Source of the DNA: a virus
Taxonomy: Duplodnaviria; Caudoviricetes
DNA length: 53,829 bases
Virus record (IMG/VR): IMGVR_UViG_3300046167_000114
Location: 1 to 53,829 of that record
Strand: one strand, 5' to 3'
The position numbers and the translations under genes were made by a program. The first letter of the stretch is position 1; the number at the start of each line of letters is the position of its first letter. The notes beneath the pieces were generated by a model. That model searched no databases. It worked only from the letters and a program-made list of their open reading frames with translations, and was not told where the DNA came from. Shown here piece by piece: positions 1 to 22,627 of this stretch.

Positions 1-223
1 CACGTACATCGTGGATGGGGGCACCGGCCCTCGCAGGGGGGTGGCATGATACCTTTTACCTTTTTTTGTGCTGATTTGTGCTGATTTCATTGCGTAAACC
101 ATTGAAAAGGCACGATTTTATAACTGATATGCAGTCCTTGAAATGCTGAAAACGTGAAATTTTAACGGCTTTTTTCATATGGGGCACGTTTCGCGGATTG
201 GATGCACAAAACCCCTACCCGTC

Positions 224-306
224 TCTTATTTGTGATCACAAAACAGCCACCCCTCTTTTAAATGTGATCACAAACCAGCAATCTCTTTTCATATGTGATC
301 ACAAAA
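224..306. repeat. Three phased copies of the perfect palindrome TGTGATCACA (231, 263, 294), each preceded by CTCTT and followed by AA
   Basis: Read directly; start-to-start spacing is 32 and 31 bp. Confidence 0.9.
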
Positions 307-312
307 GCGGCA

Positions 313-645
313 CCTATCCTTAACCTATCCCTTCGGATATAACATCTATCCTTTAGCCGGGGGAGCTATACTTTAGCCTGGTTGCGCTATACCGATGGAT
401 ATACGAGTGGCACAACGGGTTAGCTAAGGCTATATCCGCTGGTATATATAGCGCTCAGAGCCGCTCTAGAGGGGTCCACAGCGTCGAAAGCGCTTTCCCT
501 TATCCCGATACCTTAAAAAGCTTTAACCCCAAAAACATACCTATCGGATATACAAACTATCCTTTGGTATAGTGCTATATCCTTTTGGTTATAACGTTAT
601 ATCCTTTAGCCGGGCGGCAGCTATCCGTGCGCTACCCAAAGGTGT
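313..645. repeat. Array of degenerate TAT(A/T)CC-N3/4-GG(A/T)TA quasi-palindromes and TATCCTTTAG half-sites in the left non-coding end
   Basis: Copies near 326, 388, 431, 537, 557 and 576; the 15-mer TATCCTTTAGCCGGG is repeated exactly at 347 and 600. Confidence 0.75.
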
Positions 646-771
646 TGGCTTAGGTAATTGCGTATATAAAGCAAGGACAGGCGTATAGTTTGGCATTAGG
701 TGGGCTGGACAATGGCGCAAAACGGCGCAAATAATTCGGGACAATTTAACTTAAACAAGAGGAAAAACAAA

Positions 772-1683
772 ATGCTTATTTCAAAATTGACTAAAGGTTT
801 TAACGTAAACGGCTTCACTTCAAAAGCCGCAGCAATCCGCTATTTGAAAAGCAAGGGGCACAATATTTGCACCTTACTGGCGCAACCCGAAAGCAATCCA
901 AAAGTTGCAAAAAATGGCAAGGTTGTTGAGGTAATGACATGCGCCTTGCACCTTGCGCCGTTTAATTTGTCGGGTTTCCAAGTATGCGCCAAAGCTTCAC
1001 AAGGCTGCGCTGCAGCGTGTCTACATACTGCAGGAAACCCCGCATATATGGATCAGAAAGAGAAAAGCCGCATTGCTAAAACCCGCGCCTATTTTTTAGA
1101 GCGTGATGCATTTATGGCCGTTTTGTTCTTTGAAATGCTGGCCCACTATCGCAAGTATTTTGTGAAACAAGGCGTTGAAATTGCTTTTAGATTAAACGCC
1201 ACAAGTGATCTACCTTTTGAAAGCCGCAAGGTTACAATAGACGGTAAACCCGTTTTTCTCATGGAAGCTTTTGGCAAAATTCAATTCTATGATTATACGG
1301 CTTTTGATAAACGCGCTATTAAATTTGCAAAAGGTGACATGCCAAAAAACTATCATATTACGTTCAGCAAAAAAGAGGACAATGATCAAGAGGTTGCGCG
1401 GGTTCTTTGGCATGGTGGCAATGTTGCAATGGTGGCAACAAAAGAGGTCTATAAGCACGTTTTAGAGCAAGGTTATATTTCATTGCCAAGCCCAACGGGT
1501 GCCCCGATTAAATACAAAGCCGTTGACGGTGACGCGCATGATTTTCGCCCTATTGATCCAAGCAATAGCGTGATCATTTTAAAAGCAAAAGGTGACGCTA
1601 AAACCGACACAACGGGCTTCACTGTTCGCAAGCTTTACACCGGCAAAGCACAAACCCTAAGCGCTGCAATTGCTGCAGCGTAA
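772..1683 (+). CDS. GP88-like protein (atypical radical-SAM-like Cys motif), first early gene
   Basis: CAKASQGCAAACLHTAG (CX6CX3C), RLNATSD, FYDYT, YHITFS and DGDAHDFR motifs as in phage gp88-family proteins; strong RBS AAGAGG before ATG 772. Confidence 0.7.
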   Translation: MLISKLTKGFNVNGFTSKAAAIRYLKSKGHNICTLLAQPESNPKVAKNGKVVEVMTCALHLAPFNLSGFQVCAKASQGCAAACLHTAGNPAYMDQKEKSRIAKTRAYFLERDAFMAVLFFEMLAHYRKYFVKQGVEIAFRLNATSDLPFESRKVTIDGKPVFLMEAFGKIQFYDYTAFDKRAIKFAKGDMPKNYHITFSKKEDNDQEVARVLWHGGNVAMVATKEVYKHVLEQGYISLPSPTGAPIKYKAVDGDAHDFRPIDPSNSVIILKAKGDAKTDTTGFTVRKLYTGKAQTLSAAIAAA

Positions 1684-1709
1684 ACCTTAACTTAGCAAAG
1701 GAAAAAATC

Positions 1710-1919
1710 ATGGATCTAACATTTTCAACATATTGCCATATTGAGCGCCGCGCAGGTGGCGTGGGGCAACCTCCAAAGCGCTTTATTGAAGCCGTGCACG
1801 ATTGCTTAAAACCTCATAGAAAAACGCGGGTTGCGCGTGATCAACGTCATGAATTTATACGCGCCGTATTAGAAAAGCGCGAGCAATTGCTTGGCATGTA
1901 TGTCGACAATAGATTTTAG
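1710..1919 (+). CDS. Small basic early hypothetical protein
   Basis: ORF with AAAGGA RBS, tightly packed in the early operon. Confidence 0.75.
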   Translation: MDLTFSTYCHIERRAGGVGQPPKRFIEAVHDCLKPHRKTRVARDQRHEFIRAVLEKREQLLGMYVDNRF

Positions 1920-1937
1920 AATAAGAGGAAAAACAAA

Positions 1938-2221
1938 ATGCAAGTAGCGTTTAGAATAACCGGCTTATCAAACCGCGAAACCACGCGCGATGAAAAAATA
2001 GAATTTGCTAAGATAATTGCGTTCAAGCTTAGGTGCCCCGAGAAAAGTTTTCACACAAGCGCCCGCTTAAACGTGGTTCGCATAGTATCACACAAAAAAG
2101 CTTGGGTGATTTATTGGCGGCTTTTCCTGAAATGGATTTTGTGGCGCGTACAATTGAGGCGCATGAAATAAGCTTGAACGGCTTAGTGACGTTTAAGCTT
2201 GCAACAATGGGGGCAGAATAA
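1938..2221 (+). CDS. Early hypothetical protein (probably one gene split by an indel near 2070)
   Basis: RBS identical to gene 1; overlapping ORFs 1938-2171 and 2033-2221, the latter abutting the next ATG. Confidence 0.6.
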
Positions 2222-2440
2222 ATGCAAAATTTAACCATATACTTGCACAAGCAATTTGAGCATGGCAAAGCGCTTGCAATATTGGGCAGCAATATAAGCG
2301 CATATAATAAGCTTAAAGAGGCTAAACAATTAGCGCGAAAACTTGATTGCGTTATTGTCGGACGTGATTGCTTAGGCGGGTTGCGCTTTGAGATAAACCT
2401 AAACGCCCCGCGCCCGCATCAAGTTAAGGTGACAAAATGA
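2222..2440 (+). CDS. Early hypothetical protein
   Basis: Coupled TAAATG start and ATGA overlap with the next gene. Confidence 0.7.
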   Translation: MQNLTIYLHKQFEHGKALAILGSNISAYNKLKEAKQLARKLDCVIVGRDCLGGLRFEINLNAPRPHQVKVTK

Positions 2441-2658
2441 AAACCCCATTAAAAGCAATCCGCAAGGCGCAAGCATTAGAGCAATCGCTTGATCGTCAAG
2501 AGACAATGCTGCATTTATGGCGGTATAAAAAGCAAAAGAGGCGGGCGCGTTTAGCGCTTCGCTTCACCGATAAACCAAAAAAATATGGTGGGCATCTTGG
2601 TCTGTCATATGGATTGATGCGGCAACAAACAGGAGAAATAAAAGATGCAATACTTTAA
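2437..2658 (+). CDS. Small basic early hypothetical protein
   Basis: ATGA coupling; K/R-rich. Confidence 0.7.
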   Translation: MKTPLKAIRKAQALEQSLDRQETMLHLWRYKKQKRRARLALRFTDKPKKYGGHLGLSYGLMRQQTGEIKDAIL

Positions 2659-3097
2659 GAGAAAATATTTAATGCAAACGTCAAATAATCCTGACAATCC
2701 GCGCAAGAATATTTGCGGCTTGGCTATAGCTAAGATTTTAGGCGTCGAAGAAAAAACGCTTTACCTTCACACATGGCCGGATCTTAAACGTGCTATTGGA
2801 TCTTTGTATGGTTTCCGCAGCGTAAAGACTGCAGTGCATTGCAAAAAAGATAGTACGGTAGGAAGCTTGCGCGGCAAGATTGAAGAGCATTTCAAAACGC
2901 ACGGTGATGTAGTGCTTTATGTCGTGCGCGTTGAGGGCCATGTATTAGCGCTGGGGCCGCAAGGTCAAACGTGGGTGGATACTGCGAAGCGCAAACGTGA
3001 CAGGCGCAAGGTTCTAGACGTTTATGGCGTGTATTTGCCGGTTGGCAACGAAAAGAAATTGGCTGAAATTGCTAAAAGATGGGGCATGGATAGATGA
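2645..3097 (+). CDS. Early hypothetical protein (basic)
   Basis: AGGAG RBS; 150 aa ORF. Confidence 0.75.
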   Translation: MQYFKRKYLMQTSNNPDNPRKNICGLAIAKILGVEEKTLYLHTWPDLKRAIGSLYGFRSVKTAVHCKKDSTVGSLRGKIEEHFKTHGDVVLYVVRVEGHVLALGPQGQTWVDTAKRKRDRRKVLDVYGVYLPVGNEKKLAEIAKRWGMDR

Positions 3098-3315
3098 AAA
3101 CATTTACTTTTGAACAAGCCAAAGCTGCTTACTTTAATGAAGACGCAGCGGAGCTATCACTTGCCAGTGAACAGATGATTGATGATCTAGCTGTTTGGCT
3201 TGAGGATAATGGGTATGACAGCGAATACGTTTATCGGCTGCATGATTATGGGCTAGAGGAAATGCGCTGCTTGATGGCAGAGGCAGCGATAGAGTTTGCG
3301 GAGCATTTGAAATGA
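3094..3315 (+). CDS. Small acidic early protein
   Basis: ATGA coupling; 17 D/E vs 5 K/R. Confidence 0.75.
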   Translation: MKTFTFEQAKAAYFNEDAAELSLASEQMIDDLAVWLEDNGYDSEYVYRLHDYGLEEMRCLMAEAAIEFAEHLK

Positions 3316-3485
3316 GATTGACAGGTAAAAGCATGTGGTACGTTGCAACCACCAATGTTGCAAATGAGCAACACAATCAGAGCTGGTATCTTGATGTTGA
3401 ATTAGCGCTTGATCGTGTCAAAGAATTGGCCCTAAGTGGCTACAGGGTTATTATTGAAGAGGAGATTAACCATGTCGAATATTAA
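3312..3485 (+). CDS. Small hypothetical protein (57 aa, not in the ORF track)
   Basis: Hand-translated MRLTGKSMWYVATT...NHVEY*; ATGA-coupled and fills the gap. Confidence 0.6.
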   Translation: MRLTGKSMWYVATTNVANEQHNQSWYLDVELALDRVKELALSGYRVIIEEEINHVEY

Positions 3486-4197
3486 TGTAGATAAGTATGT
3501 CATCAGCCTGTACGATTACACAGGCGAGGCTCTCAAGCCGTGGGCAGAAGCAGGGTATAGCTGCCTTGCCTTTGATATACAGCACGACGATACAGTCACA
3601 GATGTGTATGGCAGCGGTGGCAGCATCAAGTATGTCAAAGCAGATCTGCATGACCAGAATGTGCTCAACAATATTGCTGTCAACCTGCAGTTTGAAAACG
3701 TTGTCTTTGGCATGGCCTTCCCTGTCTGTACAGATCTGGCTGTATCAGGTGCAGCACACTTCAAGCGCAAAGCAGAGAAAGACCCCGACTTTCAGATCAA
3801 AGCATCAAACTATGCAAAGATGTGTGCACAGCTATTTAATGAGCTTGGGGTGCCTTTCTTTATTGAGAACCCTGTCTCTAGATTGGCAACGCTGTGGCGC
3901 AAACCTGACCACTGCTTTCACCCGTATGAGTATGGTGGATACATCTGCAAGAGCAATGCTGAGCACCCAACATGGCCTGAGTATATTGCACCCCGTGATG
4001 CTTATCCTAAAAAGACATGCCTATGGACAGGTAATGGCTTTACTATGCCATACCGCTTACCAGTAGAGCCAGAGCAGGGCTACAGCAAGCAACATCGTAA
4101 GCTTGGCGGTAAATCAATGAAGACTAAGAACATACGCAGCGCAACGCCCCGTGGTTTTGCTAGTGCAGTGTATTATGCAAATGGAGTAACGGTATAA
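3472..4197 (+). CDS. Phage-type DNA (cytosine-5) methyltransferase-like protein (Dcm-like)
   Basis: Motif I-like SLYDYTG, catalytic-like FPVCT, motif VI IENPV, KKTCLW and RSATPRGF; GAGGAG RBS before ATG 3472. Confidence 0.75.
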   Translation: MSNINVDKYVISLYDYTGEALKPWAEAGYSCLAFDIQHDDTVTDVYGSGGSIKYVKADLHDQNVLNNIAVNLQFENVVFGMAFPVCTDLAVSGAAHFKRKAEKDPDFQIKASNYAKMCAQLFNELGVPFFIENPVSRLATLWRKPDHCFHPYEYGGYICKSNAEHPTWPEYIAPRDAYPKKTCLWTGNGFTMPYRLPVEPEQGYSKQHRKLGGKSMKTKNIRSATPRGFASAVYYANGVTV

Positions 4198-4400
4198 TGA
4201 ACATATCTAATGAAACATTTCTTGAGCTATCTGCAGAGATTGCAGAAGCATGGATGAATGACGCATACCTTGATGACATCTATGTTGAGGATGAGAACGG
4301 TGATGAGCGCTACACAGAAGAGGCGCAGGATCGGTTCAACGATATCTTAGATGAAGTGCAAGCCATCTTAGAGGGCTATGTAAGAGGGGTGACAGCATGA
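4197..4400 (+). CDS. Very acidic small protein (DNA-mimic candidate)
   Basis: 19 D/E, 3 R and 0 K in 67 aa. Confidence 0.75.
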   Translation: MNISNETFLELSAEIAEAWMNDAYLDDIYVEDENGDERYTEEAQDRFNDILDEVQAILEGYVRGVTA

Positions 4401-4579
4401 GATTAAATGAGCTTACAAGAGCCTTAGCTGCAGGTCTTAATGTGCGTTGGGCTAGTGATGGTTATAAAGTATACTGGCAAGATGACGTTATCTATGTCAC
4501 GTATGAACCTAACGGTTTCACTGGTGCCTTAGCTATAAGTGAAATAGAAGATTGCTATGTAAAAGAGGTGACAGCATGA
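4397..4579 (+). CDS. Small hypothetical protein flanked by duplicated junction sequences
   Basis: ATGA coupling at both ends. Confidence 0.7.
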   Translation: MRLNELTRALAAGLNVRWASDGYKVYWQDDVIYVTYEPNGFTGALAISEIEDCYVKEVTA

Positions 4580-4752
4580 AGGATCACTGGGTTATTAGAT
4601 ATGATGGCTTGTGTTGTGGTGAATGGGAGACAACATGGGAAGGGCATACTGATCTACATGATGCCGTTCAACATTTGAAAGAGCTAACAAAGGCTGGATG
4701 GCGTAATGTTTTTATGGAATATGATCCAGAACCAGAGGAGTATGAAGAATGA
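4576..4752 (+). CDS. Small acidic hypothetical protein
   Basis: Likely start MKDHW after the GAGGTG RBS. Confidence 0.65.
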   Translation: MKDHWVIRYDGLCCGEWETTWEGHTDLHDAVQHLKELTKAGWRNVFMEYDPEPEEYEE

Positions 4753-4961
4753 AAACCTATGATCTTAAATTGACGCATGAACAAGTGAGAACACTTCAAA
4801 CAATTCTTAATCAGGATATTGAAGATACTATGATTGCAGAGCCAGAGATTGAAGATTTTCACTGTACCCGTACAATGAGGTATTGGCTGCACAGAGCAGA
4901 AGTATTAGATGCACTCAATCAATTGCGTAAGCAAATAAGAGATGAGATCATTGATGCATAG
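4749..4961 (+). CDS. Hypothetical protein
   Basis: GAGGAG RBS; ATGA coupling. Confidence 0.7.
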   Translation: MKTYDLKLTHEQVRTLQTILNQDIEDTMIAEPEIEDFHCTRTMRYWLHRAEVLDALNQLRKQIRDEIIDA

Positions 4962-5166
4962 TTATTTGTATAGACTAGGCATTGCCACCTCTGTCTGGTT
5001 TAACGTACTGCTAGGCGGTTCATCGAACCAAACTTTCAGTGCACGTAACTATCAGTGGCAAAAAGATCACAGGTTTAACTTGGTATTTTTGATCGACTTG
5101 ATCTGTGGAAAAGGACATTGTATGACATGTTGGTCATATTGGATGATTAGAAAAGGAAAATGGTAA
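4954..5166 (+). CDS. Hypothetical protein (FNVLLGG..NQTFSARN...HC type phage family)
   Basis: ORF in the operon; motif resembles a common small phage protein; start uncertain. Confidence 0.6.
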   Translation: MHSYLYRLGIATSVWFNVLLGGSSNQTFSARNYQWQKDHRFNLVFLIDLICGKGHCMTCWSYWMIRKGKW

Positions 5167-5378
5167 TGACTAATCAAAAACAAACTATCTTGAAGCACCT
5201 TAAAACTGCAGGTTCAATCACAGTGCGTGAAGCGCTTATTGAATACAGCATCAGCAGCTTGACCAAGCGTATTCAAGAGATGCGTGAAGAGGGCTACGAC
5301 ATTCTATCTATGAAGAAGTGGCACCCTGTCACCAATCAACGGTATGTGCGTTACTACCTACAAGGTTCACCTAAATGA
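5160..5378 (+). CDS. Winged helix-turn-helix protein
   Basis: QxxxILxHL..GSITxxEA..Y.I..L..RI.E.R..GY.I pattern typical of small phage wHTH proteins. Confidence 0.75.
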   Translation: MVMTNQKQTILKHLKTAGSITVREALIEYSISSLTKRIQEMREEGYDILSMKKWHPVTNQRYVRYYLQGSPK

Positions 5379-5539
5379 CCTATCGTGTATGGCTTAGTGA
5401 TGCTAAAGGTTTTGACTTCTGTTACATCAGCACAAAGAACCGACTTGAAGTAGATAAATTATTGGAGAAGTATTCTAGATGGGAAAACGTCAAAGCAAGG
5501 GTGGAGAAGTATATACCCCGCGAAACTGCATATCAGTGA
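5375..5539 (+). CDS. Small hypothetical protein (54 aa, not in the ORF track)
   Basis: Hand-translated MTYRVWLSDAKG...ETAYQ*; ATGA-coupled. Confidence 0.55.
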   Translation: MTYRVWLSDAKGFDFCYISTKNRLEVDKLLEKYSRWENVKARVEKYIPRETAYQ

Positions 5540-5547
5540 GGAAGCTT

Positions 5548-5682
5548 ATGTATTCTCTGAAAAGGCAGATAGATGATCTAGAGTGGGAAGGTGACTTTAA
5601 GCGCGCTGATTTCCTACGCAAAGATCTTGCCCATGTAACTGAGTTAGATAAGAAAGGTGATGTATGGTTCCCTTCATTTTAA
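5548..5682 (+). CDS. Small hypothetical protein
   Basis: GAGGA RBS before ATG 5548 (MYSLKRQIDDLEWEG...). Confidence 0.6.
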   Translation: MYSLKRQIDDLEWEGDFKRADFLRKDLAHVTELDKKGDVWFPSF

Positions 5683-5792
5683 AGTATAGCATCGTGTTAT
5701 TAATCTGTGCTGCTTACATAATTGGTTTTGTTGCTTTGATGTTTACTAGCCATGAGGAGCTAAGCAGTGCAAAGCGAAAAGGATTGCGATAA
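5664..5792 (+). CDS. Small single-pass membrane protein (42 aa)
   Basis: Hand-translated MVPFILKYSIVLLICAAYIIGFVALMF...; AAGGTG RBS. Confidence 0.5.
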   Translation: MVPFILKYSIVLLICAAYIIGFVALMFTSHEELSSAKRKGLR

Positions 5793-5857
5793 CCCTCACG
5801 ATGATGCATCACATTGGGCGGGCAACATGCCCCCCAGTAAAAAAGGAGACAAGGATA

Positions 5858-6766
5858 ATGAGAAAAGTAAAGATCCCAAAGGCGACAGAAAAGGTAAGTA
5901 AACTTATTGACTACTACCTGCACAGCCCTGCCTTTGCTAAGCTCAGCCCTCGCAGCCAGAAAGATTATGAGTATCACTTGGCTAGAGTTAATAAATCTAT
6001 TGGCAGTAAGGCTATCGAAGATGTTACAGCCGGTATGCTAAACAAATCCTATGAGAAGTGGGAACAAGATCACGGCATACGCACAGCTAATTACACAAAG
6101 TCTGTACTGTCTAGGGCATGGAAGTACAGCATGTCCAAGGATGTCATGCGACATAACCCTGTGAGTCTCATAGAGACTAGCACAGAACGTAAAACAAAGA
6201 CCAAGTGGGATCGGGCATCTGTAAAGACCTTCCTCACTACAGCGTACAGCCAGTGGCGTTGGCGCAGCATTGGGTTGATTGTTCACATGGCATATGATTG
6301 GGGTCAACGTACTGGTGACATGCGTACCCTGACATGGGATGCATTAGATCTGGATCAATGCCGCATGGATCTAACACAATCTAAGCGGGGCGCAGATGTG
6401 CACCTGCCTATCAGTCAGAACCTCTGCAAGATGTTACGTGAGCAACACAAAGATTTTGGCTTTCAAGATTACGTTGCACCAAAGGTATCACTGGATCGTG
6501 GGCAGGTTAGACGCTACGGCTTGAATGAAATAGCGCCTCTTATCAATGAGGTACTGGACGAAGCTAATCTACCTAGAGAGCTTACAGCTATGTCGCTGCG
6601 CCGTACTGCCGTTACTGAAATGATGGAAGCAGGGGTTGACCTAGTGGGTATCATGCAAGTAACAGGGCATGTGAACCCTGCATCATTGAAGCCTTACATG
6701 GTCAATACATTCAGTGGTGCAAGCAGAGCTTTAGCAGCAAGAGGTAACGATGATGAAGATTCGTAA
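5858..6766 (+). CDS. Tyrosine recombinase/integrase-family protein
   Basis: GQR, QSK, (M)SLRRT, TGH and KPY catalytic-motif positions; N-terminal core-binding region. Confidence 0.85.
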   Translation: MRKVKIPKATEKVSKLIDYYLHSPAFAKLSPRSQKDYEYHLARVNKSIGSKAIEDVTAGMLNKSYEKWEQDHGIRTANYTKSVLSRAWKYSMSKDVMRHNPVSLIETSTERKTKTKWDRASVKTFLTTAYSQWRWRSIGLIVHMAYDWGQRTGDMRTLTWDALDLDQCRMDLTQSKRGADVHLPISQNLCKMLREQHKDFGFQDYVAPKVSLDRGQVRRYGLNEIAPLINEVLDEANLPRELTAMSLRRTAVTEMMEAGVDLVGIMQVTGHVNPASLKPYMVNTFSGASRALAARGNDDEDS

Positions 6767-7544
6767 ATATGTAGGTGATCTATGCCTGACTACGGGTGAG
6801 AACCATCGTGGTAACTGTCCTGTGTGTGGTGGGCGTAATACGTTCACTGCAACCAACGACAATGGTGTAGTAAAATATAACTGCTACAAAAATACCTGCA
6901 CTATCGGTGGTTTTATCCACACTGATTTGACTGCTGCAGAAATAATGATGATTATGCGACAAACTGCAGAGCAAAAACGACATAGGGAGAAAGAGACTAT
7001 GGAGATACCACAGTATGTGGTGAAGCCTATGCCTACGCATCTAAAGTTTAACAGGTTTGTAAGGCGCTGGGGTTTAGCGATAGATAATTTACTTTATGAT
7101 GTTAAGGATGAGCGTGTTGTATTTCCGATACACCACAAGGGGCGCATGGTAGACGCTATCGGTAGGGCTGTAGGTAACACGCAGCACCCTAAATGGTATC
7201 GCTACACTGGCAAAGCTGACTACTACACGATAGGTACAGGGTCTGTCCTATTTATTGTTGAAGATGTTGTGTCAGCTATCGTTGCATACCAAGAGTTTCC
7301 ACATATAACTAGCATGGCTATTCTTGGTACTCAATTAACAGACAAACATATGGAGAAGATAGGTGAATATAATAGGGTTGTTATTGCTCTTGATCCTGAC
7401 GCTATAGATAAGACTATCAAGTACAGGTCAGAGATACAGGCATGGACAGGGCTACGCACTATGGCTTACATGCTAAACGACGATGTTAAATACAGAGTAG
7501 AAGATGACATGGAAAAGTTAGAAGGAATGTTGAACAATGATTAA
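6750..7544 (+). CDS. DNA primase (Zn ribbon + TOPRIM)
   Basis: CPVC...CYKNTC; VED and ALDPDA TOPRIM acidic motifs. Confidence 0.85.
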   Translation: MMKIRKYVGDLCLTTGENHRGNCPVCGGRNTFTATNDNGVVKYNCYKNTCTIGGFIHTDLTAAEIMMIMRQTAEQKRHREKETMEIPQYVVKPMPTHLKFNRFVRRWGLAIDNLLYDVKDERVVFPIHHKGRMVDAIGRAVGNTQHPKWYRYTGKADYYTIGTGSVLFIVEDVVSAIVAYQEFPHITSMAILGTQLTDKHMEKIGEYNRVVIALDPDAIDKTIKYRSEIQAWTGLRTMAYMLNDDVKYRVEDDMEKLEGMLNND

Positions 7545-8133
7545 ACCAGCGGTATTACCTCAAGGCTACACAAAGAATGTAGCAATGCACAAAGGTCAGT
7601 GGTGGTATGTTATGAATGGTGTACTGAAACAGCCTATAGTACAGTGTGAAGAGCGCAACAAAGGAAGGATGTTTGTACGAGAAGAAATGACTGCAGATAA
7701 TCCTCAAGGCTACATACATAAAGGTAAGGGTAAAAAACCACCACACCCTTATGTGTTGCTTGGATACCACACTCCAGGAGTATTTAAAACTTGGGATGAG
7801 GCATTAAATAAAATTAACTCTGAGTCTTTTGAGAAGGGTAAGAGCACAGAAGGTTACGTGTATGTTATAAATTGTGAGGGTGCGTATGACGGTTGGTTAA
7901 AAATAGGATGCACTAGATTTATAGAAAGAAGACTTAGCGCATTAAATACAGGATCTCCCTTTAGAGATTATAAGTGTTTACATATGAAATTCTTTTCTGA
8001 TAGGCACTTCGCAGAAGGTAAAGCGCATAAAGCAGCTAAGCTTATCTTTACAGATCACGACAAACAAAATGGTGAATGGTTTAAGGTGTCAATAGAACAA
8101 GCCATAGATATTATTGATAGGATAGAAGAATGA
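7537..8133 (+). CDS. GIY-YIG superfamily (T5orf172/MUG113-like) domain protein
   Basis: GYVYVI...KIG...RL..LNTGSP...GEWF. Confidence 0.75.
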   Translation: MIKPAVLPQGYTKNVAMHKGQWWYVMNGVLKQPIVQCEERNKGRMFVREEMTADNPQGYIHKGKGKKPPHPYVLLGYHTPGVFKTWDEALNKINSESFEKGKSTEGYVYVINCEGAYDGWLKIGCTRFIERRLSALNTGSPFRDYKCLHMKFFSDRHFAEGKAHKAAKLIFTDHDKQNGEWFKVSIEQAIDIIDRIEE

Positions 8134-8216
8134 TTGAAGCGGTAACAGGTGCATCTATACTTGCGTTCTTAATTATTGGTTTTGTATGTATCATATTGAG
8201 TGAGGTAAATAAATGA
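8130..8216 (+). CDS. Small membrane peptide (28 aa)
   Basis: MIEAVTGASILAFLIIGFVCIILSEVNK; ATGA-coupled on both sides. Confidence 0.5.
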   Translation: MIEAVTGASILAFLIIGFVCIILSEVNK

Positions 8217-8868
8217 TTGAAGTAACTTTTAAAGCCAGCATGGGTAATGACCTTACGGTCTGTAACGCTGCCCGTGTTTCATTCGGTAAAGAAACTGAGT
8301 GGGATTACGAAGAGTCAGATGCTTACAGCTTTAAGCAACACCTTAAAACAAAAGATAGGAAGCTTATACAATACCTAGCCAAACACAATCACATCAGCCC
8401 CTTTGGGCATTGCTTTGCCAGCTTTCACATCAAAGCACCCGTCTTTGTAGCTAGGCAACTTGTGAAGCATAAGTTTCTACGGTGGAATGAGATTAGCCGC
8501 AGATACGTGGACAATGAGCCTGAGTTTTACGTACCTGATACATATCGTGGGCGTAGTCTTGATAAGAAGCAAGGTAGCGCAGGTAAAGTAACTGTATCTG
8601 ACAACGGCTTTAACGAGATTGCATTGACAGAGTATGAGTACCTACTAGACTTAGGTGTCTGCCCAGAGCAAGCACGTATGGTGTCTACCACAGAGCTATG
8701 ATGACTGAGTGGTACTGGTCAGGTAGCTTGGATGCGTTTGCTGATATGTGTAAGCTTCGCTGTGCGCCTGACACACAAGCAGAGACAGCAGAGGTAGCGT
8801 GGGGAATTGATCGCATTATGGTTGACCTGTTCCCTGTGTCGTGGAGAGCATTAAGGGAGAATGGATGA
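8213..8868 (+). CDS. thyX: FAD-dependent thymidylate synthase (apparent indels ~8684-8698)
   Basis: HISPFGH, ARQLVKH, NEISRRY and EQARMV; the continuation MTEWYWSGSL...DTQAE lies in another frame. Confidence 0.9.
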
Positions 8869-9023
8869 TGAGAGGTAATATTAACGGTGCAATCAAGGCG
8901 TCAGCTATTGTAGCTTTACTGATAGCTGCGCCACCTGTGTTGATAGCTATGACGTATGACGAATACCCTAAGTACTGCAAGCTATCAATATTGCTACCAT
9001 GTATAGGAGTAAGTGATGAATGA
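8865..9023 (+). CDS. Small membrane protein
   Basis: Hydrophobic stretch SAIVALLIAAPPVLIAM. Confidence 0.55.
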   Translation: MMRGNINGAIKASAIVALLIAAPPVLIAMTYDEYPKYCKLSILLPCIGVSDE

Positions 9024-9231
9024 CATTAAAGTAACAGATGTAGAAGAGCACCGTGATGGTAGCGCTACACTACAAGTAGAGTGTGCCCCTGAGATATTCG
9101 CAGCCATCTTTAACGTAGGGTTTGTAGCTCTTATAAAGAGAGGCTTAGAAAGTGAGAAGTGGCAGACATGTGTAAGCTGTGGTGGCCCCGCTCAGAATGA
9201 TATGTGTGGCTTTTGCTTAGAGGAAGAATGA
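9013..9231 (+). CDS. Hypothetical protein with a C-terminal Zn ribbon
   Basis: CVSC...CGFC; AGGAG RBS. Confidence 0.7.
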   Translation: MMNDIKVTDVEEHRDGSATLQVECAPEIFAAIFNVGFVALIKRGLESEKWQTCVSCGGPAQNDMCGFCLEEE

Positions 9232-9232
9232 T

Positions 9233-9607
9233 ATGGCAGAACAAAAATTTGAAGATGCAAAAAGTGAAGGTTGGCTTTATGCAGGAAGAAACTCAAAAGG
9301 TGAAATTAAGTTTAGAAAGTACACAAACCAAGATCTGAATTATGTAAAAAAGTATCTTGATGATAAAGGTTTGGCATACTACGTACATGAGAAGGCTAAA
9401 TTAGTTTTTATATATAAAGATCCTGAGCCTGAAAGTCAGTACAGTGCTAGGTATGCTTACTACTATACTACTGGTATGTGGGGTAATGACAAAAGGAAGA
9501 AACATTACCATTCCAATGGTATAGAAGATTTTATAGATAGATTCTTTACAACTAAAGAAGAGAACAAGAAATATTGGGATGAAAAAAATAAGAAAGAAAA
9601 GACATGA
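9233..9607 (+). CDS. Hypothetical protein (AT-rich, Tyr/Lys-rich)
   Basis: 124 aa ORF with GAGGA RBS. Confidence 0.7.
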   Translation: MAEQKFEDAKSEGWLYAGRNSKGEIKFRKYTNQDLNYVKKYLDDKGLAYYVHEKAKLVFIYKDPEPESQYSARYAYYYTTGMWGNDKRKKHYHSNGIEDFIDRFFTTKEENKKYWDEKNKKEKT

Positions 9608-9765
9608 GTATGGCTGGAACAATAGAAGACATGCGTTGGGAAATAAAACTGTTGAAAGATGAAAACAGTAGGCTTAGACGTTTCATTAAGGATCACAAAC
9701 TGATTCGTGAGTTTGACGATGAAGAACGTAAGAGAGCCTTAGAGAGAGCAAGAATAAATAAATAA
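9604..9765 (+). CDS. Small coiled-coil-like protein (53 aa, not in the ORF track)
   Basis: Hand-translated MSMAGTIEDMRWEIKLLKDEN...RINK*. Confidence 0.55.
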   Translation: MSMAGTIEDMRWEIKLLKDENSRLRRFIKDHKLIREFDDEERKRALERARINK

Positions 9766-9786
9766 CTACACTTGTAGGAGACAAGG

Positions 9787-11014
9787 ATGATTGAATTAGC
9801 ATTACTAAAAACTCTACTTAATAAAGAGTTTTACGATCAACACAAAGGCATACGCTGCCCTGATAAGATCTTTACGAAAGACACACGTAAGATCAAACAG
9901 GCGTTAGATACGGCAATGCAGACGTATGAAGAAGATATGTCTGTGTCAGATCTTGAGGCTGTGTTCATGGGGCTTAATCAGACCATGACAACCGCTACGA
10001 AATCTGCATTCCAGGATTTGTTTCAGCGTTTAGAAAAGGCTGAACCTATTAAGAAAGACATTGCAGAAGATACCTTGAGTCACCTGTTTCAACAGTACGT
10101 TGGAGAGCAGGTTGCCAATCTAGGTTTCGACTTTGTTAATGGTAGCCAGAGTAGTCTAGAGCCATTACGCCGCTTACTAGAGGATTACAAAGATGATTTT
10201 ACTCCTAATCTCCGTATTGACTGGGATGATATTGACATTGACACATTGCTTGCTGCGAATAACCTTGAAACGCAGTGGAAGTTTAACATACCAAGTCTCC
10301 GTAGGAAGGTGGAAGGCGTTAGCAGTGGTCATCTTCTTGTGGTTGGCGCTAGGCCTAATACTGGCAAAACTTCTTTCCATGCCTCTCTGGTAGCAGGTAC
10401 GGATGGCTGGGCGTCACAGGGTGCTAAGTGCATTGTACTGTGTAACGAAGAAAGCTACGAGCGTGTAGGTGCACGTTACCTAAGTGCTGCAACCAACATG
10501 AGTATGGATGAAGTTAAAGAGAATGTATCTCTAGCACGTAAGCGCTACGATCCAGTAAAACAAAACATCCGTATCAAAGATAGCACAAACAAAGATATGA
10601 AATGGGTTGAGGCGGTAGTAAAGAATGAAAAGCCTGACATTGTTGTGTTGGATATGGGGGACAAGTTTGCAACCAAGAATAGCGATAAGTCAGACATATA
10701 CCTCAAGGATGCAGCCATCCATGCACGTAACATTGCAAAGCAGTATAACTGCTTGTGTGATCTGGATGTCTCAGCTATCTGCTGTTGCAGAAGGAAAGGT
10801 CTACGTTGATCAGTCCATGATGGAAGGGTCTAAGACAGGTAAGGCAGCGGAAGCAGATCTTATGGTTTTAATCTCTAAAGATCCTATCGTAGAAGGGCAG
10901 TCAGAAGAGTCAACACGGCGGCACCTGAACATTGCTAAGAACAAACTAAAGGGTGGGTGGCATGGTGTTGTCCATTGTGAATTAGATGGTGAGCGTTCAC
11001 TCTACACCGCTTAG
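9787..11014 (+). CDS. DnaB-like replicative helicase (apparent indel ~10750)
   Basis: Walker A GARPNTGKT, Walker B VVLD, SQLS and NIAKNK; the C-terminus is in ORF 10625-11014. Confidence 0.9.
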
Positions 11015-11022
11015 GAGAATAG

Positions 11023-13087
11023 ATGAGACTTGTATTAGATGTAGAGAACAGCATCACATGGCGTGATGGTAAGACGTTCATTGACCCCGTACGAGGTAGG
11101 CAACCACCTTGTTCAGGTAGGCATGGTAAATGCTGATAACAAAGAAGAGATTATGCTTGTTACCTTAGATCACAATGAGCATAAGGATTCAGATGGTCAA
11201 GGTAGAGCCTTGATACAGAAGTTACTTGATAAGACTACACTGCTTATCATGCACAATGCCAAGCATGATCTTATGTGGCTATGGGCCAGTGGCTTTACGT
11301 ATGATGGTGACATCTATGATACCCTGCTGGCAGAGTACATATTGTGCAGAGGGCAGAAGCCCAAAGAAGGTATCAGCCTATCAGCCTGTGCTATTAGAAG
11401 AGGCTTAGCAGAGCAGAAGGAAGACTACCTTACTGCCTGTATAAAGAAAGGAATAAACACCCATGAGACGGATCTCGACTCTCTTAGCATTTATCTTCGG
11501 GCTGACATCCTCACAACTTGTGAGTTGTTCCACAGCATCGAAGCAGACTACGCAACCCCAGAATCCAGATCCCTTCATGCAGTCAGAACCGTCACCTTTC
11601 AAACATGCAGAACCCTCACCGAAATGTACATGTCAGGACTAAAGGTAGACCTTGATGTATTGGAGCAGGTTAAGGAAGAGTTTGAGCTTGAACAGGCGCA
11701 GATAGAAGAGCGTCTACAGAGCCAAGTGCGGGATCTTATGGGTGATACACCTATCAACTTAAACTCACCTGAACAGCTATCTCAGGTTATCTTCTCACGT
11801 AAGCCTAACGATAAGAAAGAGTGGGCAGACATATTTGAGTTTGTAAAAGATAAGGCTGAGTTTAAAGGCTGCAGTCAATGCTAACTCTAAGATGCTGTTT
11901 AAGACAACAGCTTTTCACGTGCCCTACATGTAATGGGGCTGGACATACATACAAGACAAAGAAAGACGGTACACGTTACGCTAGGACCAAACAAGTGCAC
12001 TACCTGTGACTCAAGAGGCTATGGCTTGAAAGAGTCAAAGCAAATGGCCGGGCTTGGGCTTTAGTGCACCAAACAAGAAGTGGATCGCTCATAGTGGCTT
12101 TGGCACAGGAAAGGATAACTTAGATGCACTGGTGGCAACAGCTAGGAACAATAACATGGAAGCTGCGGCAAGCTTTATTCTGGATGTTAAGCGCCTTAAT
12201 GCTATCACTAGCTACCTTTCTAGCTTTGTTAACGGCATATCTGTGCATACTAAGTCTAACGGATACCTTCACGCAACTCTTAGCCAGCACATAACAGCTA
12301 CAGGTAGGTTTAGCAGTAAAAACCCTAACATGCAGAACATGCCTCGCGGTGGTACATTCCCTGTTAAGAAAGTCTTTGTGTCACGTTGGGAAGGCGGGAA
12401 AATTTTAGAGGCCGACTTTGCCCAGCTTGAATTTAGAGCGGCTGCGTTCTTAGCTCAAGATGAGGTTGCTATGAGAGAAGGTTGAGACAGGCTTTGACGT
12501 ACATGCTTACACTGCAAAGGTTATCTCTGATGCAGGTCAACCTACCGCTAGACAGGCAGCAAAGGAGCACACTTTTGCCCCGCTATTCGGCGCTACTGGA
12601 TATGGGCCGTAGCAACGCTGAGAAGGCTTACTATGAGCACTTCAATGATAAGTACAAGAGGTATAGCACAGTGGCAACAAAACTTAGCTGACGAAGCAAT
12701 GCGCTTCAATAAGATTACCAATATCAGTGGTAGACAGTATGCTTTCCCTGACATTGAGCGCAGAGCTAATGGTAGTGTCACACACTTTACTATGATAAAG
12801 AATTATCCTGTACAGGGCTTTCGCTACGGGTGATGTTACCCCTGCTGTACTTAATGAGTTTCACAAAAGATTGAAGCCACTAAAAGTCTGTGCTGATCAA
12901 TACAGTACATGACTCAGCGGTGGCTGACATACACCCTGACGAAGAAAAAGAGGTATTACAAATAGTTGCAGATCTTAATGACAATCTTGTAGATCTGATA
13001 GAAGATGTATACAGAGTACGTATGAATGTACCATTATTATTAGAGGCAAAAATAGGCCCAAACTGGCTTGACACAAAAGACGTATAA
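11023..13087 (+). CDS. polA: Family A DNA polymerase with 3'-5' exonuclease and DnaJ-like Zn-finger insert (several apparent indels)
   Basis: LDVEN, HNAKHD, TGRFSS.NPNMQN, motif A DFAQLEFR, motif B RQAAKEHTFAPLFG, NYPVQG, motif C TVHDS; insert CPTCNGAG...CTTCDSRG at ~11919-12021. Confidence 0.92.
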
Positions 13088-13097
13088 TGTATAACTA
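13068..13097 (+). promoter_or_regulatory. Putative promoter TTGACA-N16-TATAACTA
   Basis: The same geometry recurs at 43377-43406 and 51877-51906 on the - strand. Confidence 0.65.
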
Positions 13098-13131
13098 CAA
13101 TTTCCTGAAACGCTCATCGAAAGGAAACGAT

Positions 13132-13995
13132 ATGAGCCAAGAATTAGCAGTAGCACTAGACCGTGGACAATCAATGGCAGAGCTTATGGGCGTGTCTAAC
13201 AGCACACCACAGAGCGCAACGCCTAGCGTATCACGGCTTAACGTCAACCAAGAGATCCTAGAGAAAGAGGTATCTATGGATGGCGAAACATTTATGAAAC
13301 CAACCGTACCAAAAGGGGCGTACAAACTAACTACAGGTGATGATGTAGTATACAGTAAGACGGTAACTGTACGTGTCTTTGCTGTACGCCAACAGTGGCA
13401 GCGCTGGAATGGTGACACTACTGAGATGGAGAAAAGCGTTTTGGCTAACAGCCTTAACAAGGATCTCAAAGATAACTTAGGTGGCTATAACTTAGGTAGG
13501 CCATCAGGTTATATCGAAGACTTCAATGCACTTTCAGAAGCAACAAAGTCTCTCATTCGTAGCGTAAAGAGAGTTAAGGTATTCTTTGGTTTGGTAACAC
13601 TAGATAGCCCTACAGATGCTATGGGTGAAAAAGTAGACGGTGATTTCACGGACATCCCTTTTGTGTTTGACGTTAAGAACCGTGACTCACTAAAATCATT
13701 GGACGGTGTACTGGCGCAGATCAACAAGAAGAATCTCCTGCCACCTATGTCTACTATCAAGCTATCTCCTGCTGTAGGTAAGATCCCTACGGGTGCTACC
13801 TTTGGTTATGTTACTGCAGCAATCGGTGATAAGGTTGAGCTATCTGATGATGACAATGATGTACTGGGTAACTTCCTAGACTTCATTGAATACATCAATG
13901 GTTCACTCTTAGATAAACATGAAGAGCGTAGCTCTGATGGTCTGTCACACGCCGACAAAGAGATTGTAGCTTCAATCGTAGAAGTGGAAGAGTAA
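13132..13995 (+). CDS. Putative ssDNA-binding/replication protein
   Basis: Located between polymerase and exonuclease, acidic C-terminus, AAAGGA RBS; function inferred from synteny. Confidence 0.55.
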   Translation: MSQELAVALDRGQSMAELMGVSNSTPQSATPSVSRLNVNQEILEKEVSMDGETFMKPTVPKGAYKLTTGDDVVYSKTVTVRVFAVRQQWQRWNGDTTEMEKSVLANSLNKDLKDNLGGYNLGRPSGYIEDFNALSEATKSLIRSVKRVKVFFGLVTLDSPTDAMGEKVDGDFTDIPFVFDVKNRDSLKSLDGVLAQINKKNLLPPMSTIKLSPAVGKIPTGATFGYVTAAIGDKVELSDDDNDVLGNFLDFIEYINGSLLDKHEERSSDGLSHADKEIVASIVEVEE

Positions 13996-14841
13996 TGGAA
14001 CACCCTGCTGAATTAGCAATCTTCTCTTACTTACAGAAGGCTATGGCAGGTGAGGCATCAATGTCAAAAGAGGTGGCTTCTAAAGTCGCCTCTGATGTTG
14101 AGGCTGCTATGCTAAAGCAGTTTGCTAGTGGGCCGCGTGACGAGTTTCGTATGCGTATGTCCTAATCTTGGTAAGCCTAAGTGTCAGTTGTGGTATGAGA
14201 AGAATGACCCAAAGGATAAGACCCCTTTTCCACCACACTTCTTGATGAACATGATCTTAGGTGACATTGTTGAAGCTGTATTTAAGGGCGTCATGCGTTC
14301 TGCTGGTATAGACTTTAAGGACAATGATAAAGTCACACTAAAGCTACCTCACGGTCAGGATATCAACGGTGAGTATGACATGGAGTTGGACGGTAAGATT
14401 GACGATGTTAAGTCTGCATCTCCTTGGTCATACCAGAACAAGTTTGCTTCATTTGATGCACTAGAGAGTGGTGATAGCTTTGGTTACATCCCACAGCTTG
14501 TAGGCTACGCAGAGGGTGCAGGTAAAGGTGTTGGCGGCTGGTGGGTTATCAATAAAGCTAACGGTGAGTTTAAGTATGTCTCAGCCTCTGAGGTAGACAA
14601 ACAATCTGTGCTAGATGATATCCAAGATACGGTTGATTATATAGATCAAGACCAGCCTTTCGAGCGTTGCTTTGAGCCAATTGAAGAAACATTCTACAAG
14701 AAGAAGACAGGGCATAAGAAGTTAGGTACTGAGTGTGGTTTTTGTGCATTTAAACATAAGTGCTGGCCCAACCTGAGTACAGAACCTGCTAGATCATCAA
14801 AAGCTAAGAATCCAAAAATGGTAGATTACATTGATGCCTAA
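13995..14841 (+). CDS. PD-(D/E)xK (Cas4/RecB-like) exonuclease (apparent indel ~14160)
   Basis: RMS-NLGKPKCQLW, GDIVE, EYD..DDVKSAS, QLVGY and CGFC...C. Confidence 0.85.
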
Positions 14842-15268
14842 AAAACATAATACCAGAAGGTATCGTAGTGGCCTTGAAAGAGAGGCCGCTGCATTTCTAA
14901 AGGTAAACCAAAAGAAGGTGTTGTATGAAAAGATAAAGATAGAATGGGAAGACCTACGCTATCGGACATACACACCTGACTTTGAGTTAGACAATGGTAT
15001 CTTTATTGAAACTAAAGGTATCTTTGACAACGAAGATAGACGTAAGCATCTAGCAATAAAGGAGCAACATCCAGAGTTAGACATACGCTTTGTATTTAGT
15101 AACGCTAATGCCAAGCTATATAAAGGTGCCAAATCTCGCTATTATAACTGGTGTGATAAAAATGGCTTTCTGTGGTCACACAGGTTAATACCTGTAGAGT
15201 GGCTAAAAGAAAAAGGTAGACGGTGTAAGCTTGAAAGAGTGGCACTAAAAACACAAAGGAAGAAGTGA
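14831..15268 (+). CDS. T7 endonuclease I-like Holliday junction resolvase
   Basis: YRSGLE, YTPDF, IETKG and DIRFVF. Confidence 0.9.
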   Translation: MMPKKHNTRRYRSGLEREAAAFLKVNQKKVLYEKIKIEWEDLRYRTYTPDFELDNGIFIETKGIFDNEDRRKHLAIKEQHPELDIRFVFSNANAKLYKGAKSRYYNWCDKNGFLWSHRLIPVEWLKEKGRRCKLERVALKTQRKK

Positions 15269-15639
15269 TGTCTTACAAAGTAAAAAATGATGAAGTTGCT
15301 GTTATTATAAAGCCTGTTATGGATGAAGAGGGTAATTGGACACTTGAGTTAGCTACAGGTTTAGCCTTTGGTGAGGTCATAGATGCGCCTATGCCCGCAG
15401 CACATGCAGCTTTTGAGGCTGCGCTTTCTATGGCAGCGTCTTTAACCTTTCTAGCAGATTACCCTGAGTTTGAGGAAGAGCTTGTCGAATATAAACAGGA
15501 AATGCTAAAAGATATATTTCCTGAGCAATATGCTGCTGCTGAAAAAGAGTTATCAGATGCAGAAAAAGAAGAGGTTTACAGCAAGAAAGGTAACGTATAT
15601 ACACTTAATGCGTTCACTAAAACACAAGGAAGTGCTTAA
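15265..15639 (+). CDS. Hypothetical protein
   Basis: Coupled ORF in the replication operon. Confidence 0.7.
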   Translation: MMSYKVKNDEVAVIIKPVMDEEGNWTLELATGLAFGEVIDAPMPAAHAAFEAALSMAASLTFLADYPEFEEELVEYKQEMLKDIFPEQYAAAEKELSDAEKEEVYSKKGNVYTLNAFTKTQGSA

Positions 15640-15866
15640 TGGTAGATCCTGTAAATAAACCCGTACACTATAATCAAGCTGGGATAGAGTGTATAGAAGC
15701 TATACGTGCTATGACATGTAAGATGGATGGTACAAGTGCGTACATGGCTGGTAATGTATTGAAATACGTTTGGCGTCACGAGTATAAGAATGGTCTGGAA
15801 GACTTAGAGAAGGCGCAGGTATACTTAGGTTGGCTAATAGATAACTACAAAGAGAATCACAAATGA
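15639..15866 (+). CDS. DUF3310 (T7 gp1.7-like nucleotide kinase family) protein
   Basis: DPVNKPVHY, IECIEAI, GNVLKYVWR..KNGLEDLEKA..YL. Confidence 0.85.
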   Translation: MVDPVNKPVHYNQAGIECIEAIRAMTCKMDGTSAYMAGNVLKYVWRHEYKNGLEDLEKAQVYLGWLIDNYKENHK

Positions 15867-16036
15867 ACACCAAGACATTTAGTGTTATGTTTATGTTAAA
15901 CGTAGAGGAAGAAAACAACATTCTATCATCGTCTGATGAGCACCATCAGGAAGATGTTTATGACCTAATAACAAATGTTATGTATGATGTTGATGATGTA
16001 AAAATACGAAATTTAATAGTTAAGGAGCGGCAATGA
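15863..16036 (+). CDS. Small acidic hypothetical protein (57 aa, not in the ORF track)
   Basis: Hand-translated MNTKTFSVMF...VKERQ*; ATGA-coupled at both ends. Confidence 0.6.
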   Translation: MNTKTFSVMFMLNVEEENNILSSSDEHHQEDVYDLITNVMYDVDDVKIRNLIVKERQ

Positions 16037-16419
16037 TTAATGAGACAGACTTAGAAGCATTTGGTTACTTTGACATGTTTCAGAACAGCCCTGATTGGGA
16101 TAATGACCCACTACGTTTTTATAGCCAGTTTGTAGAAGATAAAGTTTTTACTAAGGGGCGAGAACGATTAGTAGAAAACACTTTGGGTCTTGTAGGAGAA
16201 TCAGGAGAGGTTGCGGAAAAGATAAAGAAACTATTTCGTGACAAAGGAAAGTTTAGTGATGAAGATGTACTGAAAGAGTTAGGGGATGTGTTGTTCTACG
16301 TTGTTGCATTATCAAACATCTTTGGCGGTAACTTAAAGAAGACTATGGAAATGAATATGGCAAAGCTGGATGACAGAGAGCAGCGCGGAAAATTAAAGGG
16401 TTCAGGAGACAATAGATGA
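16033..16419 (+). CDS. mazG: MazG-like nucleotide pyrophosphohydrolase
   Basis: LGLVGESGEVAEKIKK, ELGDVLFY and GSGDNR. Confidence 0.88.
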   Translation: MINETDLEAFGYFDMFQNSPDWDNDPLRFYSQFVEDKVFTKGRERLVENTLGLVGESGEVAEKIKKLFRDKGKFSDEDVLKELGDVLFYVVALSNIFGGNLKKTMEMNMAKLDDREQRGKLKGSGDNR

Positions 16420-18538: not shown

Positions 18539-18539
18539 C

Positions 18540-22626: not shown

Positions 22627-22627
22627 A

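Follow-up and report, generated by a model that had tools for sequence, protein, structure and literature searches.

Why does an alphaproteobacterial phage keep the first kilobases of its gene map free of a word that is tolerated in the rest of its genome? The word is GANTC, the recognition site of CcrM- and HinfI-type enzymes, and none was found at the left end of a viral DNA of 53,829 bases (IMG/VR record IMGVR_UViG_3300046167_000114; Caudoviricetes), which is called here, at its full length, the window. An initial annotation, made from the sequence alone, had attributed this gap to the order of DNA entry: the end entering the cell first would have been purged of a motif read by the host as non-self, and this would imply a GANTC-directed defence and an early counter-measure encoded in the same zone. 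The gap proved to be a real, conserved and motif-specific feature of the early-gene block: GANTC has been specifically removed by selection from this block in the lineages of phages CRP-1, CRP-2, CRP-207, CRP-345 and CRP-603 and their kin. The interpretation given to it was, as a whole, partly supported.

A GANTC-free stretch covering the early-gene block

Judged by its genes, the window is a near-complete HMO-2011-type podophage, with the Roseobacter phages CRP-2, CRP-603 and CRP-207 as its nearest relatives. GANTC was located by pattern search, which returned 88 sites, the leftmost at position 6163, and thereby confirmed that no site precedes it. The GANTC-free stretch (positions 1..6162, no strand assigned) consists of a non-coding control region and a presumed early-gene block upstream of the integrase gene, and its right edge, site 6163, falls inside that gene. 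On a circular map, the free arc extends from site 53445 to site 6163 and measures 6547 bp. The gap in 1-6162 is about twice as long as the next-largest ones in the window, of 3242 and 2404 bp.

The absence was compared with several null models. Base composition predicts 22.8 sites in 1-6162, close to the figure of about 20 first proposed. Preserving the dinucleotides of the region itself lowered the expectation to 13.1 (standard deviation 3.5), and zero was reached in none of 2000 shuffles; Markov models of order 2 and 3 gave 10.0 and 5.2 sites, and the site rate of the remaining window gave 11.4 (Poisson P 1.1e-5). A synonymous-codon shuffle, in which all proteins and the region's own codon usage were preserved, predicted 7.3 sites (standard deviation 2.4) and reached zero once in 1000 trials. 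The purge therefore survives both the codon-shuffled and the dinucleotide null.

Outside this stretch, counts were near the codon-shuffle expectation over most of the window. The replication module (6163-19060) contains 25 sites against 30.5 expected and served as an internal control; 17 of them, against 20.9 expected, lie in 11001-19060. The initial annotation had described the sites as sparse until about 11 kb. Those that it listed were right, but 9540 and 10077 had been overlooked, and the eight sites in 6163-11000 do not fall below chance (9.6 expected; 323 of 1000 shuffles as low or lower). Since this count is within the shuffle range, the profile is a step near 6.2 kb and not a gradient reaching to 11 kb. 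Further right, 28 sites were found in 19090-36000 (30.8 expected) and 35 in 36001-53829 (47.5 expected; 2 of 1000 shuffles as low). In the non-coding control DNA of the window, 1-699 lacks GANTC and a single site lies at 53445, and no intergenic enrichment was observed, with 8 of the 88 sites outside open reading frames (ORFs) against 9.1 expected. The first 6 kb differ from the remaining window in many other words (for example, CTAC/GTAG occurs 20 times against 79 expected from the rest), and a crude comparison of early and remaining rates places GANTC only seventh of 136 words of the form XYNZW. Because so many words differ, the specificity for GANTC becomes visible only with region-specific nulls and across relatives.

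Conservation of the gap in related phages

Among the closest isolates, the largest GANTC-free stretch at the left end covers 1-4147 in CRP-2, 1-4785 in CRP-603 and 1-3928 in CRP-207. CRP-345 has no site in 1-6497 and CRP-1 a single one in its first 5.3 kb, the early deficit of CRP-9 is weak, and HMO-2011, whose host belongs to SAR116, carries nine sites in the first 3.4 kb. Annotated early blocks of isolates were submitted to the codon shuffle (1000 shuffles each). No site was present in CRP-345 against 8.8 expected (0/1000 as low), one in CRP-603 against 8.1 (2/1000), three in CRP-2 against 9.4 (2/1000), two in CRP-207 against 7.5 (5/1000) and two in CRP-1 against 11.7 (0/1000), while HMO-2011 showed a mild deficit, nine against 14.1 (25/1000).

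A helicase-based search of IMG/VR yielded 80 loci. When the isolates were added, an integrase preceded by 2.5 kb or more of sequence was available in 28 sources. The observed/expected ratio for GANTC (Markov-2) was at most 0.45 in 27 of these 28, the exception being HMO-2011. Clustering at 90% identity reduced the sources to 15 lineages, or 14 when HMO-2011 is left out. In the 4 kb upstream of the integrase these 14 lineages hold 17 sites against 106.6 expected (0.16), and the 15 including HMO-2011 hold 24 against 116.3. In the replication module, taken as 8 kb from the helicase start in the 11 lineages having that DNA, the count was 140 against 202.2 (0.69). Runs free of GANTC measured 2.1-8.5 kb in 13 of the 14 lineages. 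Eight of the 17 residual sites lie in the final kilobase before the integrase, and four belong to one repeat (iteron) cluster at the far edge. When nine complete genomes were treated as circles, the largest free arc lay on the early block in eight of them, and in the remaining one (G003) the arc there was the third largest. In six of the nine the arc has its left edge at the control region, 4.8-6.2 kb ahead of the integrase. Its right edge ranges from 1.2 kb short of the integrase start to 3.4 kb beyond it. Phages with the purge have been isolated on four different host strains. Thus, the polarity suspected in related phages was borne out, the depletion being limited to the early block and conserved.

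Several neighbouring phages are poor in GANTC over the whole genome. Markov-2 ratios of 0.33 and 0.20 were obtained for CRP-3 (L089) and CRP-738 (L093), which have no polarity and no left block, and ratios of 0.44 and 0.17 for SIO1 (L097) and the Rhizobium T7-like phage RHEph21 (L096), also without polarity. Since HMO-2011 and CRP-9 are mild, and SIO1 and RHEph21 lack polarity, the polar form belongs to the lineages of CRP-1, CRP-2, CRP-207, CRP-345 and CRP-603 and their IMG/VR kin.

The gap has persisted through extensive gene turnover. When the 15 early ORFs of the window were compared with nine related isolates, no homologue (E 1e-4) was found for nine of them, and the only recurring early genes are a methyltransferase gene, a winged-helix gene and a few small ORFs. 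At the DNA level, the three nearest records show similarity to 6-24% of the query over 1-8000. As the early genes have been replaced while the void was kept, shared sequence ancestry cannot explain the gap. Some relatives carry, in the non-coding control DNA that immediately precedes the free block, repeats of the type CGAATCAC, each with a GANTC: six copies in CRP-207 (L004+L007, 54220-54410), three in L073 (1084-1125), one in L037 (174) and none in the window. From their sequence and placement, these sites could be binding sites able to sense CcrM methylation.

Motif specificity and other avoided words

Of 96 palindromic words counted in four early blocks, GANTC was the most depleted (6 against 38.3 expected), while in the remainder of the same genomes it was not among the twelve most depleted palindromes. 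An unbiased scan was then made of 2675 strand-symmetric words pooled over the 14 lineages, comprising 4-mers, 5-mers, XYNZW words and 6-mers for which the pooled expectation was 8 or more. GANTC ranked first of all 2675 for depletion in early blocks (P 5e-27), its sub-words headed the list of lowest early/replication ratios, and every central base was purged (0.18 for GAWTC and 0.11 for GASTC). In the nine complete genomes, GANTC occurs 16 times against 87.5 in early blocks and 792 times against 1024 elsewhere.

GGWCC showed the same polarity in these genomes, with 4 against 34.2 in early blocks and 220 against 360 elsewhere, and AGTACT perhaps also does (3 against 11.1, and 192 against 204). 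The polarity of GGWCC favours a restriction-type cause over one tied to CcrM alone. A stronger general purge of palindromes in the early block was considered and rejected, since 6-bp palindromes have observed/expected ratios of 0.67 in early blocks and 0.59 elsewhere (1.01 for non-palindromes). Other words have been removed genome-wide in the window and in its relatives CRP-2, CRP-603, CRP-207 and G001-G005, among them GCATGC (1 of 63 expected), GGTACC (2 of 63), TGGCCA (0 of 36), GAGCTC (0 of 35) and CGTACG (1 of 44); CCWGG is depleted everywhere, at 0.24-0.32. Still others are absent from particular lineages, as in the counts for four genomes of CAGCTG (0, 0, 0 and 44), CGCG (26, 0, 0 and 34) and AGATCT (27, 0, 0 and 17). 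To judge by these counts, the near-absent palindromes are a classic lineage-specific signature of restriction avoidance.

A proposed site avoidance in the DNA that acts first

The reading that we favour, tentatively and with a probability of about 0.4, is a restriction-type avoidance confined to the DNA that acts before phage counter-measures, with a host nuclease as the reader. The early block, from the control region to about the integrase, would be under position-specific selection removing every GANTC. A host nuclease would read unmethylated GANTC, and the block would be exposed first, having to stay intact and be expressed before host nucleases are neutralised, so that not even one recognition site in this first-acting DNA could be afforded. 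This logic is known from the first-step-transfer region of T5 and from the leading regions of T7-like phages. A counter-measure, in the form of an early function or of later methylation, would protect the sites elsewhere, which would hence be tolerated. A nuclease is favoured as the reader because the purge has the all-or-none character expected if one cut is lethal, because GGWCC behaves alike, and because these genomes bear a heavy restriction signature.

Several observations weigh against this reading. We know of no GANTC-cutting enzyme from roseobacters, and CcrM is described as an orphan methylase. A literature search likewise found no roseobacter nuclease reading GANTC; the like polarity of GGWCC does fit the proposed GANTC-directed defence. 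A search for prophages and hosts in reference genomes returned only two phage contigs, binned into a metagenome-assembled genome (MAG). Among the 15 early ORFs, no known anti-restriction or DNA-mimic family was matched in Pfam or PHROGs, so the early counter-measure expected in this zone was not found in that form. According to the available text of the respective studies, marine methylases mostly lack partner nucleases (PMC9516812), and under-representation of GANTC in host genomes has been described with no nuclease invoked (PMC3973325; PMC8919816). GANTC is also methylated in marine Caudovirales MAGs (PMC9516812), so that virion DNA may already be protected. The early block, in addition, has its own style. 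Its TA and AG/CT dinucleotides are lower in 9/9 complete genomes and CG is higher in 8/9. CCTAGG is unpurged early (9 against 7.2) and rare elsewhere (9 against 90), and CGCG occurs 21 times against 19.7 in the early block of the window and 27 times against 48 elsewhere. The dinucleotide style and the kept palindromes would fit a separate history of the early genes.

The order of entry is a further difficulty. The end at position 1 had been taken as the one that enters first. In a comparison with public runs, made on assembled contigs, the contigs of all four runs continue beyond position 1, and for three runs the overhang is about 1.4 kb. Five complete IMG/VR relatives begin at five places on one circular map, the record of HMO-2011 is circular, and for the distant relative PhiM6 pac-site (headful) packaging with terminal redundancy has been predicted (PMC6256558). 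Since contigs pass position 1 and relatives are permuted, the ends of the window are assembly breaks and not physical ends, and that part of the proposal was not supported. No terminal repeats were found in the window, and the papers describing the CRP phages do not mention termini. The structural arm encodes large virion proteins, one with a cell-wall hydrolase domain, that would be compatible with a T7-like ejection apparatus.

Three other explanations were weighed. The reader could be host CcrM/GcrA instead of a nuclease. Early expression would then be made independent of methylation state and cell cycle: unmodified host RNA polymerase would transcribe the early genes whatever the state of incoming or prophage DNA, and the word would become harmless after takeover. 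This epigenetic insulation, which shares with a nuclease the logic that DNA working before host takeover is kept free of a host-read word, seems to us possible although rather unlikely. CcrM-bearing Alphaproteobacteria, including Rhodobacterales, are reported to under-represent GANTC in coding DNA with no nuclease involved (PMC3973325; PMC8919816). The purge is common to phages of four host strains, which a universal host factor fits better than a sporadic restriction system, and the placing of GANTC in the repeated control-region sites of CRP-207, L073 and L037 looks like deliberate use. However, known effects of CcrM and GcrA act at promoters, while the purge is total across several kilobases of coding sequence, and GGWCC, which is not a CcrM site, has the same polarity. 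No RNA polymerase gene was found among the ORFs scanned in these phages, and so the late genes must also be read by the host enzyme, yet GANTC remains near expectation in them; nor are the sites of the window concentrated between genes.

The block might instead owe its composition to its source and not to its position, if the early genes derive from a mobile accessory pool of GANTC-poor alphaproteobacterial phages and prophages. We regard this mosaic origin as unlikely. It would accommodate the near-complete turnover of gene content, the distinct dinucleotide signature in 9/9 complete genomes, an avoidance spectrum differing in both directions (CGCG and CCTAGG are not purged in the early block), and the genome-wide poverty of CRP-3, CRP-738, SIO1 and RHEph21; about half of 33 pelagiphages are likewise reported as GANTC-depleted (PMC9516812). 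Against it, the free arc is continuous and has the control region as its starting point in six of the nine complete genomes, and the G+C content of the early block equals that of the rest. In G001 and G002 the arc also reaches 3.2-3.4 kb beyond the integrase start, across the integrase-helicase stretch, although this stretch does hold GANTC in the window, CRP-2, CRP-603 and CRP-207. A foreign source would, moreover, merely shift the question of why GANTC is selected against. Plain composition, that is, the codon and dinucleotide usage of small early genes, is very improbable; it was tested and rejected. The expectation does drop from 22.8 to 5.2-7.3 with richer nulls, and the block departs from the rest in many further words as well, but a single codon shuffle in 1000 left the region of the window without a site, each of five further isolates rejected the same null, and GANTC heads the 2675 words over 14 lineages.

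A recurrent methyltransferase and other counter-measure candidates

One recurring early gene is methyltransferase-like (3436..4197, plus strand; PHROG 757, E 2.4e-72). Its product is probably a methyltransferase of the cytosine-C5 type, and its likely true start is the ATG at residue 13. The homologue in CRP-2 is annotated as a Dcm methylase, the nearest Atlas clusters carry the name cytosine methyltransferase, and the protein contains the invariant stretches FPVCTD and ENPVS, which we take to be the PC and ENV motifs. No match was obtained in Pfam even at E 10 (PF00145 included) or in NCBIfam, and PDB sequences gave nothing useful, by sequence or by profile. At the same place CRP-603, CRP-9 and G004 have a different, longer cytosine-5 methyltransferase; by these annotations, the function recurs while its gene is swapped.

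Carriage of such a gene showed some relation to the abundance of GANTC in the rest of the genome. Eight of ten phages with a cytosine methyltransferase had 0.70-0.96 of the expected sites and the other two 0.42-0.44, whereas six of seven without it had 0.17-0.51; the exceptions are G003 and G005, low with the gene, and HMO-2011, high without it. The sample is small and confounded by phylogeny, and the association is a lead only. The methyltransferase-like protein and the products of two acidic ORFs (3094-3315 and 4197-4400) are, from their sequences, only candidates for the counter-measure. A CcrM-type (N6_N4) methylase, PF01555, was found neither in the window (0/1) nor in complete relatives (0/5).

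Organization of the phage genome

The window is classed in IMG/VR as linear and 98% complete. In its major capsid protein it shares 80-82% identity with CRP-2, CRP-603 and CRP-207 and 58% with Puniceispirillum phage HMO-2011, and its helicase is 69-71% identical to those of relatives. It also has the hallmark proteins of HMO-2011-type phages and their arrangement of genes in two convergent arms, in which the integrase precedes the replication module. The rightward arm, from 700 to about 19 kb, comprises 15 mostly small ORFs followed by genes for a tyrosine integrase, a primase, a T5orf172-domain protein, ThyX, a helicase, a family-A DNA polymerase, endonuclease I, MazG and ribonucleotide reductase. 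The leftward arm, from about 53.3 kb to 19 kb, encodes terminase, portal, capsid, fibres and large virion proteins.

The rightward early genes are headed by the non-coding control region (1..699, no strand assigned), which has no ORF of at least 60 amino acids. Three 31-nt repeats centred on the palindrome TGTGATCACA occupy 228-321, spaced by 31-32 nt, and are followed at about 320-620 by many repeats of the TATCC(T)TT type; both kinds resemble operator- or iteron-like elements. A promoter and terminator scan of 1-9000 gave no more hits than shuffled sequences and defined no transcription-unit boundary. The block of 15 ORFs (700..5682, plus strand), called early from its position and gene types, includes, all on the plus strand, genes for a GP88-like protein (700-1683), two very acidic small proteins with isoelectric points of 4.2 (3094-3315) and 4.1 (4197-4400), and a winged-helix protein (5160-5378). 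Two strain variants affect this block: a 284-bp deletion (1935-2220 of the window) removes the ORF 1938-2171 in two viral-metagenome runs, and contigs of all four public runs have 47 extra letters at 5502/5503.

The tyrosine integrase gene (5801..6766, plus strand) was identified by PF00589 (E 3e-17), and family matches define the replication and nucleotide-metabolism module (6163..19060, plus strand) and the structural and lysis arm (19090..53312, minus strand), which runs leftward from the right end. Between primase and ThyX lies a T5orf172/MUG113-domain gene of the homing-endonuclease kind (7537-8133); in CRP-2 and CRP-603 an HNH endonuclease gene, placed between those for integrase and primase, is present instead. 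In five genes, those for helicase, DNA polymerase, the large terminase subunit, portal and amidase, the coding sequence is broken into at least two ORFs (9787-13100, 47459-51182 and 32455-34001). Compared with four close IMG/VR relatives, the window shows 11-13 single-base gaps in 3.3 kb, and L021 and L023 have an intact helicase of 408 amino acids against 340 in the window; the split ORFs are probably indel errors of this assembly, though some contigs seem to share the helicase frame. Collagen-like 9-nt periodic repeats and 111-nt tandem repeats (37005-37285, 39637-39845, 37432-38283 and 40438-40905) occur in two paralogous fibre genes (36122-38362 and 39210-41582).

Relation to known systems and significance

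Polar site avoidance is already established in T5-like phages and in marine Autographiviridae; what is new is that a host's cell-cycle methylation word is involved. T5-like phages are restricted only when sites fall in the first-step-transfer (FST) region (PMC10644984, citing Davison & Brunel 1979). As in the FST region of T5, sites were absent from the earliest block and tolerated elsewhere (0 against 7.3-13.1 in the early stretch of the window; 0.16 against 0.69 in the family), and the block is variable, with many small genes of unknown function. T5 has fixed ends, a proven entry in two steps and a proven sensitivity upon addition of sites, whereas the present phage is an HMO-2011-type podovirus with an integrase, known from its sequence. 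Marinomonas podophages evade a Type I system if the first-injected region lacks its motif (PMC12455610). As a marine podovirus, the present phage resembles these Murciavirus phages (Autographiviridae) facing Mme2I, whose sensitivity depends on a motif in the leading region, motifs at other positions being harmless. In the Murciavirus case, the Type I system and the entry polarity are known and the motif is bipartite; GANTC, in contrast, is a 5-bp palindrome with a putative reader. T7 combines ocr with slow entry.

Among pelagiphages, about half of 33 genomes are wholly depleted of GANTC, as is a Pelagibacter prophage, and a defence role of the mark was suggested by the authors without evidence (Seong et al. 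2022; PMC9516812). The motif, the CcrM-bearing marine alphaproteobacterial hosts and the way that depletion tracks phage lineage are the same in both groups. The pelagiphage depletion is genome-wide, whereas here it affects one block, with an observed/expected ratio of 0.16-0.18, while the rest stands at 0.69-0.77 by Markov-2 and, in the window, at 0.8-0.9 by codon shuffle. GANTC is also under-represented in the coding DNA of CcrM-bearing Alphaproteobacteria (PMC3973325; PMC8919816), and Rhodobacterales methylate it (PMC8919816). Phage and hosts thus both select against GANTC in coding sequence, but the hosts show a genome-wide bias with intergenic enrichment and the window a sharp local void without it. 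In our literature search we met no account of HMO-2011-type phages in which a GANTC void is confined to the early block, and the main paper on this group leaves restriction, methylases and early genes unmentioned.

HMO-2011-type phages have been described as a dominant marine viral group with a broad distribution (PMC9038755). Why alphaproteobacterial phages shed GANTC has been raised in print, as far as the available text of that study goes, for whole genomes only (PMC9516812). A void that is conserved and limited in position offers a direct handle on this question, since it predicts where a single site hurts and where it does not, and CRP-1, CRP-2, CRP-207, CRP-345 and CRP-603 have cultured hosts. 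For the prediction of restriction escape from phage genomes, the position of a motif counts, and not just its number. If the reader is CcrM/GcrA, the phage would insulate its first genes from host epigenetic control. With a nuclease as the reader, an orphan methylase of the cell cycle would also serve as a self-marker in immunity. In its broadest form we find the latter idea doubtful: the CcrM mark would then be the self-marker for an undescribed GANTC-directed nuclease or defence in roseobacters, and perhaps in many Alphaproteobacteria, against which phages purge the DNA that acts first and protect the rest through an early-block function, which may be the recurrent cytosine methyltransferase.

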